Below the pieces are notes generated by a model, which saw nothing but the letters and a program-made list of their open reading frames with translations, was not told the origin of the DNA and did not search any database. A stretch of 64,000 bases of DNA. Origin: Dehalococcoidia bacterium (GTDB lineage: Bacteria; Chloroflexota; Dehalococcoidia; Bin125). Of this stretch, positions 46,237-64,000 are shown one piece after another. Every line of letters begins with the position of its first letter. Within the stretch, counting starts at the first letter, position 1. The position numbers and the translations under genes are program-made. The stretch is taken from NCBI GenBank assembly GCA_963663235.2, contig CAXXNO010000011.1, forward strand, positions 64,001 to 128,000. The letters are read 5' to 3'.

Positions 46237-46663
46237 GCAGCGGGTGGCGGAGGTGTTGGCGGCGCCGTATGCGCGGGTGCTGCGTCGGGATGCGGACGGG
46301 GGCTTCGGCGCGGAGGCGCTGGAGTTTCCCGGTTGCTACTCGGCGGGGGCGGACGGGCCGGAGGCGCTGGCGAACCTGGACGAGGCGATGGCGCTGTGGG
46401 TGGCGTCGCAGCTGGAGCAGGGGCAGGAGATCCCGCCGCCGCTGGCCGTGGCGGAGTATTCGGGTCGCGTGACGCTGCGGCTGCCGCCGTCGCTGCACGA
46501 GCGGGCGGCGCTGCTGGCGGCGGCGGAGGGGGTGAGTTTGAACCGCTGGCTGTCGGCGGCGGTGGCGGTGTACGCGGGGGAGCGGGTGGACGTGGGGAGG
46601 GCGCGGGAGGTTGCGCGGGTGGCGGAGGGGGAGGCGGGGTATGGGTCGGGGCGGGGGGAGTGA
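46220..46663 (+). CDS. hicB: HicB antitoxin (RHH type)
   Basis: EFPGCYSAG....EALANL.EA..W...IPPP; YSGRVTLRLPPSLH...EGVSLN. Confidence 0.9.
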   Translation: MKARTKQRVAEVLAAPYARVLRRDADGGFGAEALEFPGCYSAGADGPEALANLDEAMALWVASQLEQGQEIPPPLAVAEYSGRVTLRLPPSLHERAALLAAAEGVSLNRWLSAAVAVYAGERVDVGRAREVARVAEGEAGYGSGRGE

Positions 46664-46769
46664 GGGGGCGGAGAACGTGTGGCTGATGTGGTTTGAGCAT
46701 GTGGTGAGGGGGCGGGAGTGAGGGGTCTGGGGTGAGTTTGCGGACACGGACGGCCCGTATCATTGAATC

Positions 46770-48812
46770 ATGAGCGGGTGGGCATATTTCTCCGACGAAC
46801 ACGGAATCGGGCGGCCCGAGACTGGGCTAGTGCGTGAAGAAGTCCCGGAGCGAGTGAGACATGCGCTTGTCCACTACCTGGGGGACCGAGATGGATTCCG
46901 TCTTTCTGAAATGTGGACATGGATCGTGTATCAGTTGGATTGGAATCCTAACCTGGTGCGCGTGACCTGCCCCCCCAGAACCGGTCCAGATCCTGTGCGA
47001 GGATTCGGGCCGGTGCGAAGGGAGTCGGCATGGCACGCAAGCGGTACGCGGCCGAGGAGATCATCGGCAAACTGCGGGAGGCGGAGGTGGTGCTCGCGCA
47101 GGGGGAATCGGTCGCGCCGGTCGCGCGCCGCCTCGGCGTGGCCGAGCCAACGTATTACCGCTGGCGGCGGGAGGACGGGGGGCTGCGGGTCGACCAGGGG
47201 CCAAGCGGCTGAAAGAACGGGAGCGCGAGAACAGTCGGCTGAAGCGGGTGGTGGCCGATCAGGCGCGGGCCAACGCGATGGTGGGGGACGTCGCAGCGGG
47301 AAACTTCTGCGCCCGGCCCAGCGGCGCCGGGCGACATCCTACCGCACGGACCCGTACGCGGTGTCGGAGCGGCGGGCCTGCCCGGTCACCGGCCAGGCGC
47401 GGGCGACACAGCGCTCCGTGCCCCGGCCGTCCCCGGATGAGCCGGCGCTGATCGCGCGCAGCGTCGCGCTGGCCCCCCGCTGCGGCCGCTACGGCTCCCG
47501 TCGCATCCCGGCCCGGCTGCGCCAGGCGGGCTGGCGGGTGAACCCCAAGCGGGTCGAGCGGCTCTGGCGTCAGGAAGGCTGGCGGGTCCCCGGGAAGCAC
47601 CCCCAACGGGGCCGCCTCTGGCTCGCGGCCGGCGCGCTGGTGCGGCGGCGGGCCGAGCGGCCGTCCCACGGCTGGTCCGACGCCTTCGGCTTCGACCGCA
47701 CCGCCGATGGGCGCCCGGTGCGGATCCTCGCCATCGTGGATGAGGACCACCCGCGAGGGCCTGCGTCTCGACGTCGCCCGCCGACGGCGCCGCGACGACG
47801 GCCTGGCGCGGTTGGCCCAGCTGTTCGTCGAGCGCGGGCCGCCGCCGTTTCTGCGGTCCGCCAACGGCCCGGCGTTCACCGCCACCGCGGTGCGGGACTG
47901 GCTGCACCGGGTCGGGGGCACGACCCGCTTCATCGAACCGGGCAGGCCTTGGGCGAACGGCTCTGGGGAATCGTTCAACGGCAAGCTGCGCGACGCGTGC
48001 CTCAATCGCGAGCGCTTCGACACCCTGCTGGAAGCCCAGATCCTCATCGCGGGCTGGCGGCGGGAGGACAACCCGATCCGCCCCCACCGTGCCCTCGGCT
48101 ACCGCCCCCCCGCCCCGGAAACGCAGCAACCCCGGGAACGTCCCATGACGCTCGTCCCGGCGATCGGACTCACTTAACGACTGGTACAACGATCGGGGGC
48201 AGGTCAGACCTATGGAGCGCCATTTTCTATTACGTGCGTGATAAGAGCAGCTACGGGTTATTTGGCGCGAATGAGTTCCTGAACTTTCTCAACTCGCGAC
48301 TGATTCGACACTACTCTGCGTACCAGATGGACGAGACGGGCCGGATGATTGAGCCAGGTGCTGCGCCTGCGAATGAAGCGATTGCCGAGGCGCGGGCGCT
48401 CCTGGCGGAGGATCGTTTCCGAGGTCCGGATAGGCAATATCAAGAGGCGTTGGAGGCGTTTTACCGACGCCCCGATCCGAACTGTGAAGCGGCTGTTTCG
48501 AATGCAATCAACGCGACCGAGGGCGTTGCGCGCGTCGTCCTTGATAACAGCAACATCAATCTTTCGGATGCGCTGAAGCGAATCCAAGACGAGCGAGACT
48601 TACACCCAGCGCTCTCCGAGAGCATGGTCAGGCTATACGGGTATGCTTCGGACGAGGGCGGCCGACACGGACTGGTCGGAGATCCGAGAGTGGATCGCCC
48701 GATCGCCGAGTTCTGTTTGCACCAGTGCGCAGCGGCAATTGTGTTCTTAGCGCGGCTCTATAGTGCAGAAGTGGTGGAGGGGCCACGGGCATCTGCAAAC
48801 GCTGAGTCATAG
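46770..48812 (+). pseudogene. AbiJ-NTD4/HEPN-like gene interrupted by an IS3 element
   Basis: Host parts 46770-46962 and 48207-48812: FS..HG..., SAYQM, LHPAL...LYGYASDEGGRHG. Confidence 0.7.
46963..48206 (+). mobile_element. IS3-family element, degenerate (OrfA about 47030-47310, OrfB to 48177)
   Basis: TGACCTGCCCCC...GGGGGCAGGTCA terminal IRs; MARKRYAAEEIIGKLREAE OrfA; ESFNGKLRD and RPH..LGY in OrfB; frameshifts; no target duplication seen. Confidence 0.93.
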
Positions 48813-55222: not shown

Positions 55223-57019
55223 CTAGCCGGACGGGGCGGCGGCGCGCCGTTGGGCGCGGAGTTTTTCGGTGGCGGGGCGGTCGATCTTATAGTCGAGGGT
55301 GCGGGGGTCGATCTCCTTGACGATGACGGCGTACTGGGAGCGGGCGGCGGGGATGGTGACGTAGCCGTCGATCACGTCTTCGAGGACGGCGTCGGGCGGG
55401 CGGGCGAGGGGGTCGCCGTAGCCGCCGCCCCCGCCGGACCAGAGGGAGAGCGTCTCGCCGGGGGCGACGGGCGCGTTGGAGCAGAAGACGCCGAGGGTGC
55501 GCTCCGACTCGGCGCCGGGGTTGGCGACGACGCCGCTGTGACCGCCGGGACCGCCGCCGAAGATGCCGGGCGGGCCGGCGATCTCGCGGTTCCCGACGGC
55601 GGAGATGGTGCCGGGGCCGTAGGGGAAGTCCAGGAGCTGCTCCAGGGCGAGGCCGCCGCGGGTGCGGCCGGGGCCGCCGGAGTCGGGGCGGCACTGGAGC
55701 TTGCGCCAGATCACGGGGTAGCGGCGCTCCTGGAGCTCCACGGGGATGTTGGTGCAAGAAGCGCCGTAGGAGGGGGCGCAGTCGTTGGCGCCGTCCTTAT
55801 ATTTCGTTGCGCCGAGGCCGCCGAAGGACCAGACGTAGTCGATGAACTCGGTCTTGAAGCCGGGGCGGGCGTCGGAGCCGGCGAAGACGGTGTTGAGGGT
55901 GCTGAAGGGAGCGCCGGCGCCGCGCTCGGGGAGGGCCTGGCTGAGGGCCCGCATCACGGAGCTGATGACGCACTCCATGGTGGTGGCGGCGAGGCCGGAG
56001 ATGGCGGAGGGGGGCTCGGCCCAGACGATGGAGCCGCGCTTGGCCTTGACCTCGACGGCGCGGGCGATGCCGGAGTTCATGGGTACGGGCGGGAGGATGG
56101 AGGCCATGGCGATGTAGACGGCGGAGACGGTGGCGGCGATGGTGCCGTTGATGCCGGACTCGGCGGGGCCGTCGCTGGCGGTGAGGTCGAAGGTGGCGTG
56201 GTCGCCTTGGACGGTGAGGGTGAGGCGGATGGTCTTGGGCTCGCCGGTGTACACGTCGGGGTCGACGGAGTCTTCGGCTTCGTAGCGGCCGTCGGGCAGG
56301 GCGGCGATGGCGGCGCGGACGAGTCGTTCGGAGTGGTCTTGCACGCCGTCCATGGAGGCGAGCACGGTCTCCAGCCCCTGTTTGGCGATCAGCGCGAGGA
56401 GGCGGGACTCGCCGGCGTTGATGGCGGCGGTCTGGGCGTTGAGGTCGCCGAGGCGCTCCCAGGACTGGCGCATGTTGGCGAGGAGGATGGTGACGACGTC
56501 GCGGTTGAGAACGCCGGCGTTGTAGAGGCGGATGGCGGGGATGCGGACGCCCTCCTCGAAGTGGGTGCGGGCGCGGGCGTTGAGGGAGCCGGGGGCGACG
56601 CCGCCGACGTCGGACCAGTGGGCGGTGGAGGTGACGAAGCCGATGAGATCGCCCTGGTGGAAGATGGGCTTGACCTGGTGGATGTCGTTGCAGTGGGTGG
56701 AGGCGACGTAGGGGTCGTTGATGATGTAGATGTCGCCGGGGCGCATGTTGTCGACGCCGATGGCGCGCATGACCTCCGGGACGGTGAGCATGGTGAGGCC
56801 GACGAAGCAGGGGGCGTCGTATTCGCCCTGGGAGATGAGCTTGCCGTGGCGGTCGTAGAGGGCGCCGGCGAAGTCGCGGCCCTCGTTGACGGGGGTGGAG
56901 TAGGCGCTCTTGGCGACGACGAGGGCCATCTCGTTGCAGACGGCGATGAAGGCGTTGCGCAGGACCTCGAAGGTGATGGGGTCGAGGAGGGTGGGGTTGG
57001 GCACGGTGGGGTTGGGCAC
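55223..57019 (-). CDS. Hydantoinase B / oxoprolinase family protein
   Basis: DPITFEVL, NDPY..STHCND, HWSDVGG..PGS, DSGGPGR.RGG, GGGGYGDP. Confidence 0.93.
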   Translation of the reverse strand: MPNPTVPNPTLLDPITFEVLRNAFIAVCNEMALVVAKSAYSTPVNEGRDFAGALYDRHGKLISQGEYDAPCFVGLTMLTVPEVMRAIGVDNMRPGDIYIINDPYVASTHCNDIHQVKPIFHQGDLIGFVTSTAHWSDVGGVAPGSLNARARTHFEEGVRIPAIRLYNAGVLNRDVVTILLANMRQSWERLGDLNAQTAAINAGESRLLALIAKQGLETVLASMDGVQDHSERLVRAAIAALPDGRYEAEDSVDPDVYTGEPKTIRLTLTVQGDHATFDLTASDGPAESGINGTIAATVSAVYIAMASILPPVPMNSGIARAVEVKAKRGSIVWAEPPSAISGLAATTMECVISSVMRALSQALPERGAGAPFSTLNTVFAGSDARPGFKTEFIDYVWSFGGLGATKYKDGANDCAPSYGASCTNIPVELQERRYPVIWRKLQCRPDSGGPGRTRGGLALEQLLDFPYGPGTISAVGNREIAGPPGIFGGGPGGHSGVVANPGAESERTLGVFCSNAPVAPGETLSLWSGGGGGYGDPLARPPDAVLEDVIDGYVTIPAARSQYAVIVKEIDPRTLDYKIDRPATEKLRAQRRAAAPSG

Positions 57020-57092
57020 GGTGGAGTCTCCTGTCGGGGGGATGGTAGCGCGGCGGGAGGGTGGGGGCCGCGGGCGTTGCCGGCCCGGCGCG

Positions 57093-59441
57093 CTAGGGGG
57101 CGGTCCCGCCCTCCACGAGGAAGACGGTGGCTCGGCCGCCGGGGAGGCCGCCGTCCGCGCCGATGGTGTAGGTCCCCGAAACGCCGGTGGGGGTAAGGGT
57201 CCCCTCGAAGGTCACGAGGATGTTGGCGAAGCCGGCGGCGAAGCCACGGCCCTCCGCGCTGAAGGCGCCGTCCGCCTGGAGCGGCCCGCTCACGGTGACC
57301 CAGGGGTTGGCCCCGGTGAAGGTGACGACGAGGCCGCCGTCCTGAGCCACGGCGACCTCCGCGGCGGCCGCGGCGGGACCGCCGGTCACGTCCACGTCGA
57401 TCGTAGCGGGGTGGTTGGAAGCATCGATGCAGCAACCGTGCGGGTTGCTCTCCTCTTGGTAGACGACAAACATCTCCGCCGTGAAGCCGGGCCCGATGAG
57501 GCTCACCTCCTCGACGCGGCCCATGCGGGTGACGATCAGGATGGTGGCCGTGCCTTCATCGGTCTCGACCGAGACGACATGCTCGCCGTCCGGGATCCCC
57601 TCCGCGATCTGGACGCCGATCCCGGTGTCGCTCAGGAAGACGACGGGCGCCGGTTCCCCGTTGATGAACACCATGGCGCCGGCCATCGCCTCGCCGGTGA
57701 GGACCAGGACGTTGTCGTCGGTGAAGTCGGTCGAGCCGACGCGGGGTGGGAGCGGTGAGGTGTCGGGGTAGGGAATCGGGTTGAAGTTGCCGGCCTCGTT
57801 CTCGAACAGGAGGCTGAACGAGCGCACGGGCATGGTGTCCCCAGAGAGGAAGGCGGCGTCAAGGAGCAGGGCGTTCTCGTAGGCGAAGTAGTAGAGGATC
57901 ACGGCGAAGGGGAGGTCGAACTCCTCCGCCCAGGCGCGCATGGCGGCGCGGGCGCGGGCGCTGCCCATCAAGTCGTCCAAGCCGCTCAGGAAGCCGCTGG
58001 TGAACTCGCCCCCCGCGTCGGAGGGGTTGGGGTCAACGGCCGGGTCGATGTCGAAATAGGACTCGCGGGTGTTCGAACTCGTGATCACGATCTGCACGTT
58101 GGAGACGGCGTTGAGCGCGCCAAGGAAGTTGCCGCTGAAGCAGGCATCGATGATGACCTTGAAGGTCTTGGTGGGCAGCCGGCGGATCTCGGCCGCGAGC
58201 CTGTCGGCCGTGAGCACGGTGCCGCCCAGGGTCACGTACACGGCGGCGGAGCCGTCGGCCCACTCGTCGCCGCCGTGCGTGGTGATATAGATGGTGATGT
58301 CGCGGCAGTTGGGGTCGTCGGCCAGGAGGCGGAGCCGCTGGATGAGCGCGCCAACGCCGTTGACGTCCGGGTTGACGCCCTCGCCCATCGTCTCGATGCG
58401 CTCGTAGCCCTGCCGCAGCCCGAACACGCGCCAGTCGAAGGCGTCGCGGACGAAGTCGTTGCGTCCGATTTCGCCGTCCAGCCAACCATTGATGATCAGC
58501 AGGCACTCGCCGTCCCCCACGGCGGGGGGGATGGTGGGGCCGGAGGCTTGGCTCGCGTGGAGCCCGGCCGCCGCCGTGTCGACGGCTTCGACCGGCGGGA
58601 GCTCCGCCGCCAGCGTCTCAACGTCGGGCAGGGCGTGGACCCAGTTGGCGGGGTCGCGGTACTCGTCCTCGTCGGTGAAGAGGTCGACGCCGTTCAGCTC
58701 GGGCCACCACTGCTCGTCCGCGGTCGTGACGTCGCCGGACACCGCATCGACCAGGACGAAGCGGGTGTCGTGCGCGAAGCGCGCGCCGGGTGCGTCGTCG
58801 ATCCAGTAGAAGTAGCTGATCGCGGCGGCGGTGAGGCCGCCGAGATCGGCGACCGAGCCGTCGGGCAGGAAGCGGATCCCCGGGAGCACGCGGTCGCCCT
58901 CCCGCAGCAGATCGGGATGCCGGAAGAGGAGAAGGCGCTGGTCCTCGGTGGCCGGCTGCACCACTTCGTCGATCACGATCTGGTCGGCTTCGGCGGGGGT
59001 TAGCCCACCGGCGGGAAGCTCGGGAGGTTCCGGGAGATCCGGGAGCGCGGGCCCGCCGATGGGGATCTCCTGGGCCTCCTCGGAAACGACCCAGAGGACC
59101 GCGCCTTCCGCGATCGAGAAGTTGGTTACGCCCAGAAGGGGAACGAACGATATCCAGGCGATCGCGGTGGGGTCGAAGAGCCAGGCGATCTTGACGGAGG
59201 CGAAGACGTCGGCGGCGTTGGCCGGGGCGAAGGTCCAGAAGACGAACTGGCCGCCGGCGTCCAGCGAGAGGGTGCCGTCGCTCGAAGCCTGAGCGACATC
59301 GATGGCCGTGCCGTCGTTCTGGCCGCCGGGGGGCTGGTGCGGGGGGGCTTGGGCGGCGCCGGGGGTCGTGGCGGCGAAGATCGCAACGGCCAGCGCCGCG
59401 ACGAGAGCCACCATCCTGAATCGCCTGATGCGTTGCTTCAT
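57093..59441 (-). CDS. Secreted clan CD (C13/caspase-like) cysteine peptidase, multidomain
   Basis: Signal peptide; ITIYITTHGG and VIIDACFSG His-Cys dyad; Ig/IPT-like C-terminal region. Confidence 0.75.
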   Translation of the reverse strand: MKQRIRRFRMVALVAALAVAIFAATTPGAAQAPPHQPPGGQNDGTAIDVAQASSDGTLSLDAGGQFVFWTFAPANAADVFASVKIAWLFDPTAIAWISFVPLLGVTNFSIAEGAVLWVVSEEAQEIPIGGPALPDLPEPPELPAGGLTPAEADQIVIDEVVQPATEDQRLLLFRHPDLLREGDRVLPGIRFLPDGSVADLGGLTAAAISYFYWIDDAPGARFAHDTRFVLVDAVSGDVTTADEQWWPELNGVDLFTDEDEYRDPANWVHALPDVETLAAELPPVEAVDTAAAGLHASQASGPTIPPAVGDGECLLIINGWLDGEIGRNDFVRDAFDWRVFGLRQGYERIETMGEGVNPDVNGVGALIQRLRLLADDPNCRDITIYITTHGGDEWADGSAAVYVTLGGTVLTADRLAAEIRRLPTKTFKVIIDACFSGNFLGALNAVSNVQIVITSSNTRESYFDIDPAVDPNPSDAGGEFTSGFLSGLDDLMGSARARAAMRAWAEEFDLPFAVILYYFAYENALLLDAAFLSGDTMPVRSFSLLFENEAGNFNPIPYPDTSPLPPRVGSTDFTDDNVLVLTGEAMAGAMVFINGEPAPVVFLSDTGIGVQIAEGIPDGEHVVSVETDEGTATILIVTRMGRVEEVSLIGPGFTAEMFVVYQEESNPHGCCIDASNHPATIDVDVTGGPAAAAAEVAVAQDGGLVVTFTGANPWVTVSGPLQADGAFSAEGRGFAAGFANILVTFEGTLTPTGVSGTYTIGADGGLPGGRATVFLVEGGTAP

Positions 59442-63391: not shown

Positions 63392-64000
63392 TGACCTGCC
63401 CCCGATCGTTGTACCAGTCGTTAAGTCGTTAAGTGAGTCCGATCGCCGGGACGAGCGTCATGGGACGTTCCCGGGGTTGCTGCGTTTCCGGGGCGGGGGG
63501 GCGGTAGCCGAGGGCACGGTGGGGGCGGATCGGGTTGTCCTCCCGCCGCCAGCCCTCGATGAGGATCTGGGCTTCCAGCAGGGTGTCGAAGCGCTCGCGA
63601 TTGAGGCACGCGTCGCGCAGCTTGCCGTTGAACGATTCCCCAGAGCCGTTCGCCCAAGGCCTGCCCGGTTCGATGAAGCGGGTCGTGCCCCCGACCCGGT
63701 GCAGCCAGTCCCGCACCGCGGTGGCGGTGCACGCCGGGCCGTTGGCGGACCGCAGAAACGGCGGCGGCCCGCGCTCGACGAACAGCTGGGCCAACCGCGC
63801 CAGGCCGACGTCGCGGCGCCGTCGGCGGGCGACGTCGAGACGCAGGCCCTCGCGGGTGGTCCTCATCCACGATGGCGAGGATCCGCACCGGGCGCCCCTC
63901 GGCGGTGCGGTCGAAGACGAAGGCGTCGGACCAGACGTGGGACGGCCGCTCGGCCCGCCGCCGCACCAGCGAGCCGGCCGCGAGCCAGCGGCGGCCCCGT
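63392..64000 (-). mobile_element. Second copy of the IS3 element (right part; truncated by the window end)
   Basis: Near-identical to 47606-48206 in reverse orientation, IR TGACCTGCCCCC at 63392. Confidence 0.95.

Follow-up and report, generated by a model that had tools for sequence, protein, structure and literature searches.

Dense, Almost Exclusive A:T-to-C:G Transversion in a Dead IS3-Family Lineage of Three Related Bacterial Genomes

Introduction

Point mutation spectra of bacteria are normally treated as a property of the whole genome. MutT deficiency, for example, leaves a signature of almost only A:T-to-C:G (A:T>C:G) transversions that fall on both strands. In fungi, repeat-induced point mutation (RIP) acts within a dinucleotide context and makes C:G>T:A transitions, so that the GC content of its targets falls. 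GC-biased gene conversion has a bias that covers transitions as well as transversions. A further route is described for Escherichia coli, in which 8-oxo-dG causes A-to-C changes once it is incorporated, and 8-oxo-dG derived from the nucleotide pool makes the repair of breaks mutagenic (PMC5542668). Here, we analyze a 64,000-nucleotide stretch of a Dehalococcoidia bacterium genome (GenBank assembly GCA_963663235.2, contig CAXXNO010000011.1, positions 64,001 to 128,000 of the forward strand; in our numbering G000:C11:64001-128000), which we call the window. At positions 46963 to 48206 of its plus strand lies a defective insertion sequence (IS) of the IS3 family (1,244 bp, GC content of 0.74) that belongs to a hypermutated sublineage, “Y.” A dense, almost pure A:T>C:G process has acted on this lineage and is seen in three genomes, with a per-site bias of about 100 to 1 in this one family. 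A previous examination of the letters alone (the sequence-only reading) had picked out the element and attributed its state to a mutagenic process restricted to IS DNA, either a host defense against transposons or error-prone synthesis during copy-out/paste-in transposition.

Results

The host genome (2.75 Mb in 14 contigs, 68 to 69% GC) contains 12 full and 5 partial copies of the element that are 97 to 100% identical to the window copy and have GC contents of 0.737 to 0.750; the partial copies are located at contig ends. One public run containing the stretch is labeled as a sponge metagenome. Copies were also found in two related genomes. The first, from another genus (G003), has 2 full and 3 partial copies that are 95% identical and have a GC content of 0.71, and the other (G005) has two more distant copies arranged as a head-to-tail pair. 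Changes were polarized by comparing site patterns with outgroup copies, namely, older copies in the same genome and the copies of the two related genomes, and no ancestral sequence was built. After their separation from the G003 copies, the 12 full copies underwent 36 to 47 substitutions each, and 34 to 46 of these are A>C or T>G. In the window copy, 38 of 40 changes are of this type (18 A>C and 20 T>G, the others being one C>A and one C>G), which upholds the sequence-only reading's statement that nearly every change is T>G or A>C. A>G changes are absent from every copy, and the transitions that characterize RIP are nearly so (0 to 1 C>T and 0 to 2 G>A per copy). All 45 differences between the consensus of this genome's copies and the G003 copies are A/C or G/T, as are all 10 sites that separate the window copy from its nearest sister. 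Private changes in G003 are of the A:T>C:G type in 8 of 9 and 2 of 4 cases. Of the G005 pair, one member carries 45 such changes among 104, versus 9 among 72 in its tandem neighbor. As a result of this process, 11 to 15% of the A/T positions of each copy have been altered, and the GC content of the interior has risen from ∼0.70 to 0.71 to between 0.74 and 0.75.

The changes have left the element full length and dead. Its termini, TGACCTGCCCCC at the left and GGGGGCAGGTCA at the right, form the 5′-TG/CA-3′ terminal inverted repeats of the IS3 family, and the TG...CA ends are intact in all 12 full copies, so both the bounds and the intact terminal repeats given by the sequence-only reading hold. 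An intact relative on contig C14 encodes orfA with HTH_Tnp_1 (66.4 bits), followed in a different frame by the DDE transposase gene orfB with HTH_21 (50.6 bits), rve (80.2 bits), and rve_3 (106.4 bits). As this is the architecture expected for orfA and orfB, the assignment to the IS3 family is sound. An intact relative with nearly identical terminal repeats is thus present in the same genome. In the window copy, remnants of HTH_Tnp_1 (43.7 bits), HTH_21 (41.8 bits), and rve_3 (75.1 bits) are detectable, and rve scores only 20.4 bits, under its cutoff of 32.6. The orfA remnant (positions 47030 to 47212, plus strand, 60 amino acids) is truncated by a 2-base insertion at positions 47197 to 47198 that is found in only 2 of the 12 copies and is absent from about half of the read depth. 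The former orfA stop codon at positions 47308 to 47310 has changed from TGA to TGC. The first part of the orfB remnant (positions 47307 to 47759, plus strand) reads WSDAF in place of WSYDF, with the first catalytic Asp codon now GCC (positions 47682 to 47684). The second part, past a frame break (positions 47707 to 48177, plus strand), reads SANGPAF for SDNGPEF (GCC at positions 47860 to 47862), RPWANGS for SPWENGY, and RDACL for RDECL. The catalytic acidic residues of the transposase are therefore not intact, since both Asp codons that were checked now encode Ala, and the window copy is a dead, nonautonomous member of the family. These codon changes, including the lost stop, were found just as the sequence-only reading had described them, and the ancestral residues that it had named are real. 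Two older copies in the same genome, 84 to 86% identical and with a GC content of 0.69, read WSYDF, SDNGPEF, GVTTLF, SPWENGY, RDECL, and REYNQIRPHS and retain the orfA stop; the named residues thus exist in actual relatives.

The process is strand symmetric, context dependent, limited to the interior of the element, and was active after loss of function. At least one copy is altered at 58 of the 307 ancestral A/T sites, and both strands are affected alike (28 of 166 A sites and 30 of 141 T sites). The ends escaped. Of the 38 A/T sites that lie within 105 nucleotides of the left end or 36 of the right end, none is changed, versus 58 of 307 overall (hypergeometric P = 2e-4). The mutation-free left end (positions 46963 to 47067, plus strand) comprises the left inverted repeat, the untranslated leader, and the first 13 orfA codons (25 A/T sites, none changed in 12 copies), and the mutation-free right end (positions 48171 to 48206, plus strand) comprises the right inverted repeat (13 A/T sites, none changed). 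The base 3′ of the mutated A has an effect (NAG, 40/93; NAC, 27/89; NAA, 8/42; NAT, 3/33). Hot spots are partly common to separate lineages: 20 sites are hit both in this genome and in the G005 lineage, 34 only here, 28 only in G005, and 185 in neither (odds ratio = 3.9, P = 2e-4). The TGA-to-TGC loss of the orfA stop likewise recurs across all three genomes (copies G0Y C10, G3Y_935751, G5O_578532, and G5O_579768). By codon position, the transversions fall 9, 28, and 2 times of 39 at positions 1, 2, and 3, which matches where the A/T bases lie, while ordinary differences between older lineages are at position 3 in 40 of 49 cases. This contrast indicates that the lineages diverged as working genes and that the transversions came after their death.

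Several candidate processes were rejected on these patterns. Adenine mutagenesis of the diversity-generating retroelement type does not fit, as A and T are both hit and change only to C and G, and asymmetry between transcribed strands does not fit changes that are strand symmetric. Templated change from another paralogue was rejected because each of the four nonhypermutated reference copies has A/T at the hit sites. Dislocation or slippage mutagenesis predicted a 5′-C before the mutated A, and there is no such preference.

The A:T>C:G process is confined to the hypermutated IS lineage. This was evaluated with repeats and two flanks. Among pairs of the IS3 hypermutated family that are at least 95% identical, the differences comprise 308 transitions, 2,013 A/C or G/T, 67 A/T, and 135 C/G. 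For non-IS3 repeats, the corresponding numbers are 80, 31, 4, and 6 at identities of at least 99% and 192, 79, 12, and 97 at identities of 97 to 99%. When 98 members of 12 other repeat families, each with at least 12 private changes, were scored, A:T>C:G changes exceeded G:C>A:T transitions in only two, one of which is a dead IS6 copy. Duplicates of 6 to 10 kb at more than 99% identity, like six intact IS6 copies (at least 99.7% identical), have ordinary spectra, so that long similar duplicates are not mutated in general as they would be by RIP. The spectrum is ordinary, too, at the ∼15 sites that distinguish the two older, dead copies of this IS3 family from each other. In the repeat units that abut two of the element copies, none of 69 A/T columns is changed, and in the host gene that the window copy interrupts, all 29 invariant columns of a 14-sequence alignment that includes it are preserved, with Tyr, Phe, Glu, Leu, and Ile positions among them. 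The undamaged flanking gene reported by the sequence-only reading was thus verified, and the same excess was found neither in the flanks nor in 96 of the 98 members of other families. Its wider claim of a process restricted to IS DNA needs narrowing: the effect is indeed restricted, to one IS3 lineage, but intact IS6 copies and intact IS3 copies in G003 are untouched. Two further controls gave little. The segment shared by contigs C10 and C12 beside two copies has junctions that differ by 156 bp and allows no clean boundary test, and a search for other highly similar elements in this genome and in G003 or G005, meant as a control of equal age, found two 9- to 10-kb regions with only 65 to 94% identity over short stretches.

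The intact IS6-family element is ∼955 bp long (six copies, e.g., G000:C12:38983-39937), and on C12 an intact copy lies back to back with a dead copy of 82% identity, 8 bp apart. REP-like palindromic units of ∼110 bp (CCCTCTCCATCG...CGATGGAGAGGG) occur at G000:C6:149051-149210 and at many other sites on C6. Two of the hypermutated IS copies have their insertion sites at the margins of these palindromic units.

A spectrum of the mutT type that acts on the whole genome of this organism, or acted on that of a recent ancestor, might in principle produce the same pattern if the IS lineage were simply the largest body of neutral DNA with unsaturated A/T sites and selection protected the rest. A MutT equivalog was not detected: the TIGR00586 model has a cutoff of 97.9 bits, and its best hit scores 34.6. 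This model passes in only 3 of 14 control genomes, and the genome is 92% complete. The genome is 86% G+C at 4-fold-degenerate sites, and two dead IS6 copies show a milder A:T>C:G excess (15/43 and 27/100, versus 3/51 and 4/98 in their sisters). Private changes at A/T sites of the element (five transversions to C/G and one transition) and two of three flank variants in one short-read run (X3), which are C/A, point in the same direction. However, the 4-fold-site composition implies a per-site A:T>C:G bias of only ∼6.4, while the ratio of A:T>C:G to G:C>A:T per site in the window copy is ∼99. Beside 38 A:T>C:G changes, ∼15.6 G:C>A:T changes would be expected, and 1 is seen (Poisson P = 2.8e-6). 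Recent non-IS3 duplicates differ mostly by transitions, the older dead family copies have escaped, as have the element's own ends and the abutting repeat units, the interrupted host gene is undamaged, and the two adjacent G005 copies differ markedly from each other (45 versus 9). We therefore regard a genome-wide bias as a doubtful explanation.

The same observations bear on a dedicated defense that would resemble RIP in recognizing repeated mobile DNA and mutating it in place until it is dead. The effect is family restricted, directional, and dense; catalytic residues have been destroyed, the flanks are unaffected, and independent lineages in three genomes have been hit, partly at the same sites. 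Against this, six intact IS6 copies and three identical intact IS3 sisters in G003 are untouched, the codon positions indicate that the element was already noncoding when it was hit, and the terminal repeats, which a defense would need to ruin, are exactly what escapes. To our knowledge, no enzyme directly converts A:T to C:G, and no candidate gene was identified. The single small CRISPR array found has no spacer against the element, with chance matches of 12 to 15 nucleotides only, and CRISPR self-targeting was rejected on this basis. The host defense put forward by the sequence-only reading was consequently not borne out, and we consider such a system very unlikely. The CRISPR-like array itself (G000:C4:37333-37574; a 37-nucleotide repeat in about four units) adjoins IS6 and older IS3 copies.

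An artifact of sequencing, assembly, or polishing in repeated, G+C-rich sequence was also considered. The assembly does contain indel errors, or else an oddly broken essential gene, as rpoB (G000:C4:535112-538711) is split over four frames with no stops within the pieces; frameshifts are therefore weaker evidence than substitutions. Several contigs end within copies of the element, and polishing with reads that map to several places can make mosaics. However, Logan short-read contigs from four runs of four studies, one of which may be the window's own source, confirm both junctions of the element and contain interior variants of the A/C or G/T type in 20 of 22, 28 of 30, 31 of 33, and 27 of 30 cases. 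Contigs of run X1 cover positions 46700 to 46991 and 48180 to 48500 with no differences. Because the same variant types appear in contigs of four studies, the signature is not an assembly artifact, which disposes of a concern that the sequence-only reading had itself raised. Moreover, three genomes that were assembled separately all show the signature, it is missing from older copies whose local sequence is the same, and the direction of change is fixed by protein conservation. An artifact is therefore extremely improbable.

The copies have exchanged sequence. The four-gamete test was failed by 213 of 528 informative site pairs, including markers that are not transversions, and the site patterns are not tree-like. 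Private changes comprise 5 A:T>C:G and 7 others (six G:C>A:T and one A:T>G:C), whereas changes shared by 2 to 11 copies or fixed in all 12 comprise 53 A:T>C:G and 5 others (Fisher P = 3.6e-4). Weak-to-strong (A/T to G/C) changes as a whole comprise 58 transversions and 2 transitions. A composite in G003, formed by the insertion of an intact element into a hypermutated copy at position 425 of the latter, is present at two sites with different flanks (G003:C1:1649964-1652024 and 1191572-1193632) and looks as if it had moved as a single unit from the intact left end to the hypermutated right end. Its two copies differ at 3 of 2,061 positions. All three differences are A/C or G/T and fall in a 42-bp patch of the hypermutated part. 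At two of these positions, one of the composites matches the full copies. This patch looks like a short conversion tract. In the intact part, 0 of 1,241 bp differ. No target duplication of 3 to 5 bp is found at any of the 12 full copies or at the intact G003 copies, whereas the two older copies in the host genome have GACTC on each side. Together with the ∼25 to 30 codons that the interrupted host gene lacks, the absence of target duplications fits frequent recombination between copies or adjacent deletion.

These data also bear on a coupling of mutagenesis to transposition. Here, copy-out by a low-fidelity polymerase or with oxidized dGTP, with the dead copies mobilized in trans by an intact sister, would introduce a few changes per cycle into both the donor and the new copy, and the ends would be intact because only copies with working ends propagate. 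Such a route would account for changes confined between unmutated ends, for the equal treatment of both strands, and for the fact that most changes are common to several copies, as expected of transposing lineages. Intact relatives with nearly the same terminal repeats could supply transposase, and Y-family and DnaE2 polymerases are encoded. In IS3-family biology, a head-to-tail dimer is tied to the circle-junction intermediate, and the G005 pair (G005:C1:578532-581016) forms such a dimer, with a 4-bp spacer between right and left ends. Of its two members, only the one lying downstream is hypermutated. However, the three full copies of the intact sister element in G003 are identical (branch length of 0), and the G003 composite shows no change in its intact part and only the three differences of the conversion-like patch elsewhere. 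Five private A:T>C:G changes over 12 copies amount to less than one per last event, and neither the absence of target duplications at all 12 copies nor site patterns that are not tree-like are what this route predicts. The error-prone copy-out/paste-in synthesis suggested by the sequence-only reading is weakened by these recently transposed but unchanged intact copies, and we judge it an unlikely, if still serious, alternative.

Genes that could participate in an oxidized-dGTP or low-fidelity route are present. A MutY-like protein (G000:C12:439679-440425, 248 amino acids) matches only positions 3 to 212 of the 277-position MutY model, so that just the catalytic domain is covered. The C-terminal domain that recognizes 8-oxoG seems to be missing, although a frameshift error could conceal it. 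The genome contains one DinB-like gene. A 9.3-kb segment that occurs twice at 99.6% identity (G000:C12:54196-63477 and G000:C9:139293-148579) encodes a Xer-like tyrosine recombinase, an ImuB-like Y-family gene product (121.5 bits, under the Pol IV cutoffs), and the error-prone polymerase DnaE2 (1,028.8 bits; cutoff of 939). One of the two segments abuts a hypermutated IS copy, beginning at the right end of that IS, and the segment looks like a mobile mutasome cassette. This gene set makes such a route plausible, and proves nothing.

Among 65 family genomes, matches were found in 7, with close ones only in G003 and G005, and no further hypermutated lineage was seen. A contig scan of other genomes with the intact transposase returned distant relatives only (no more than 73% amino acid identity), and scans of metagenome contigs found nothing. 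For RpoB, the only atlas hits are clusters labeled Bacillota or Chloroflexota. RNA runs contain just 0.05 to 0.08 of the sampled sequence words.

The window copy interrupts a gene of the AbiJ-like abortive-infection family, of which the N-terminal 64 codons lie at positions 46770 to 46962 (plus strand, GC content of ∼0.6) and the C-terminal 201 codons at positions 48207 to 48812 (plus strand, not hypermutated). The ∼25 to 30 codons noted above are missing at the junction. Homologs carry PF18863 and PF14355, AbiJ-type abortive-infection domains; PF18863 on the protein P0001 scores 29.6 bits, under its cutoff of 34. A HicAB pair lies immediately upstream, and the end of the HicB-like gene together with the spacer before the interrupted gene (positions 46333 to 46686) is very G-rich on the plus strand (GC skew of ∼0.32). 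Cumulative GC skew climbs across the whole window. Part of a second copy of the hypermutated element (C11:127392-128643) lies at positions 63392 to 64000 (minus strand), where the window end cuts it. The window also contains, at positions 55254 to 56986, a member of a repeat family of ∼1.75 kb that occurs at about 17 other sites in the genome, often as adjacent pairs. Its members are less than 85% identical to each other with many C/G differences, and the open reading frame at positions 55250 to 57196 has no Pfam hit; the family may be an old mobile one or a set of paralogous genes that have diverged.

Discussion

We tentatively favor a recombination-linked, one-way A:T>C:G ratchet on a multicopy dead element, a reading that we hold to be possible rather than probable and that would combine error-prone or oxidized-nucleotide synthesis with a correction of A·G mismatches that favors G/C. 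Dispersed copies would recombine, and the changes would be both made and spread in that process. Strand exchange would be limited to the interior that the copies have in common, and homology at the ends would be needed as an anchor. Repair synthesis would draw on a nucleotide pool or on polymerases by which G or 8-oxo-G is placed opposite A in the template, and A·G mismatches in heteroduplex would be converted to C·G through an adenine glycosylase of the MutY type. The net outcome would be a one-way ratchet, felt only by multicopy sequence under no selection, that would be a by-product of recombination and repair and not a dedicated defense. Besides the spectrum and direction of the changes, their confinement to an unselected lineage, the exchange between copies, the biased spread of alleles, the unmutated ends, and the repair genes, two further observations speak for this ratchet. 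Hypermutation is heavy in this genome, with 17 copies, and light in G003, with 2 full and 3 partial copies, and the identity of the intact G003 sisters together with the unchanged intact part of the composite makes transposition itself look clean.

A number of points weigh against the ratchet. Gene conversion makes no new alleles, and the G005 lineage, which has one full partner only, has 20 hit sites in common with this genome; a site-specific mutational input is therefore also needed. A general conversion bias toward G/C should favor A:T>G:C too, of which 2 are seen versus 58 transversions. The seven private changes that are not A:T>C:G, on which the contrast between private and shared changes depends, could be assembly errors, and the mosaic of alleles among copies could in part be a product of polishing, in which one read can map to more than one copy. 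The flank tests carry less weight than they otherwise would, as the bulk of the changes may be older than the individual insertions; the window copy and its nearest sister differ at just 10 sites. The asymmetry of the spared ends (105 versus 36 nucleotides) is not accounted for by a ratchet, and every step of the mechanism is a proposal drawn from genome data.

The pattern also raises the broader idea that the sponge-associated family has a repeat-restricted analog of RIP, producing A:T-to-C:G changes at hot spots in multicopy or defective IS DNA in at least three genomes and leaving neighbors untouched, which on our assessment is improbable. Each reading would have its own consequence. If recombination-linked synthesis or mismatch correction is responsible, these copies are a natural record of mutagenic repair and conversion bias, in which repeats are driven to extreme GC content. 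If transposition is responsible, IS3 copy-out can be strongly mutagenic, and a dedicated process would be the first RIP-like system in bacteria. In practice, such elements escape protein-based IS annotation and inflate local GC content.

A full-text search of a limited literature collection turned up no account of an A:T>C:G process limited to IS DNA. The locus was compared with the known systems that it most resembles. Like trans-mobilized nonautonomous IS derivatives, the lineage combines intact ends with inactivated transposase genes, is dispersed in many copies, and has an intact relative in the same genome whose ends are nearly identical. Those derivatives are usually deletion derivatives, however, whereas the copies here are full length and point mutated and have no target duplications. 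Mutagenic break repair by Pol IV in E. coli likewise ties error-prone synthesis to recombinational repair and depends on oxidized dGTP (PMC5542668), and DinB-like and ImuB-DnaE2 genes are present here. Where breaks and polymerases are concerned, the likeness is one of gene content. The E. coli process was described in a laboratory strain, around breaks induced in its unique DNA, and not as a long-term substitution ratchet limited to repeats.

Three other systems were compared. MutT deficiency shares with this locus the spectrum and the involvement of both strands; no MutT equivalog was detected here, with a model that passes in only 3 of 14 control genomes. It acts genome-wide, whereas the changes here are dense in only one dead IS lineage, with a per-site bias ∼15 times stronger than the 4-fold-site composition implies. 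Fungal RIP shares the outcome, in which a repeated mobile element takes on a single class of point mutation so densely that its genes are inactivated and its unique flanks stay unaffected, but here transversions raise the GC content, the ends of the element are unmutated, and other multicopy elements are untouched. GC-biased gene conversion shares the overrepresentation of G/C alleles among shared as opposed to private variants, the exchange of sequence between copies, and the rise in GC content of the family. It differs in that 58 of 60 weak-to-strong changes here are transversions, which may reflect either mutational input or a repair bias specific to A·G mismatches, and in that the parallel hits in G005 need a component of mutational hot spots. 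On this comparison, the lineage appears to have a spectrum like that of MutT mutagenesis, an outcome like that of RIP, and an allele distribution like that of biased gene conversion, and to depart from each in a defining feature.

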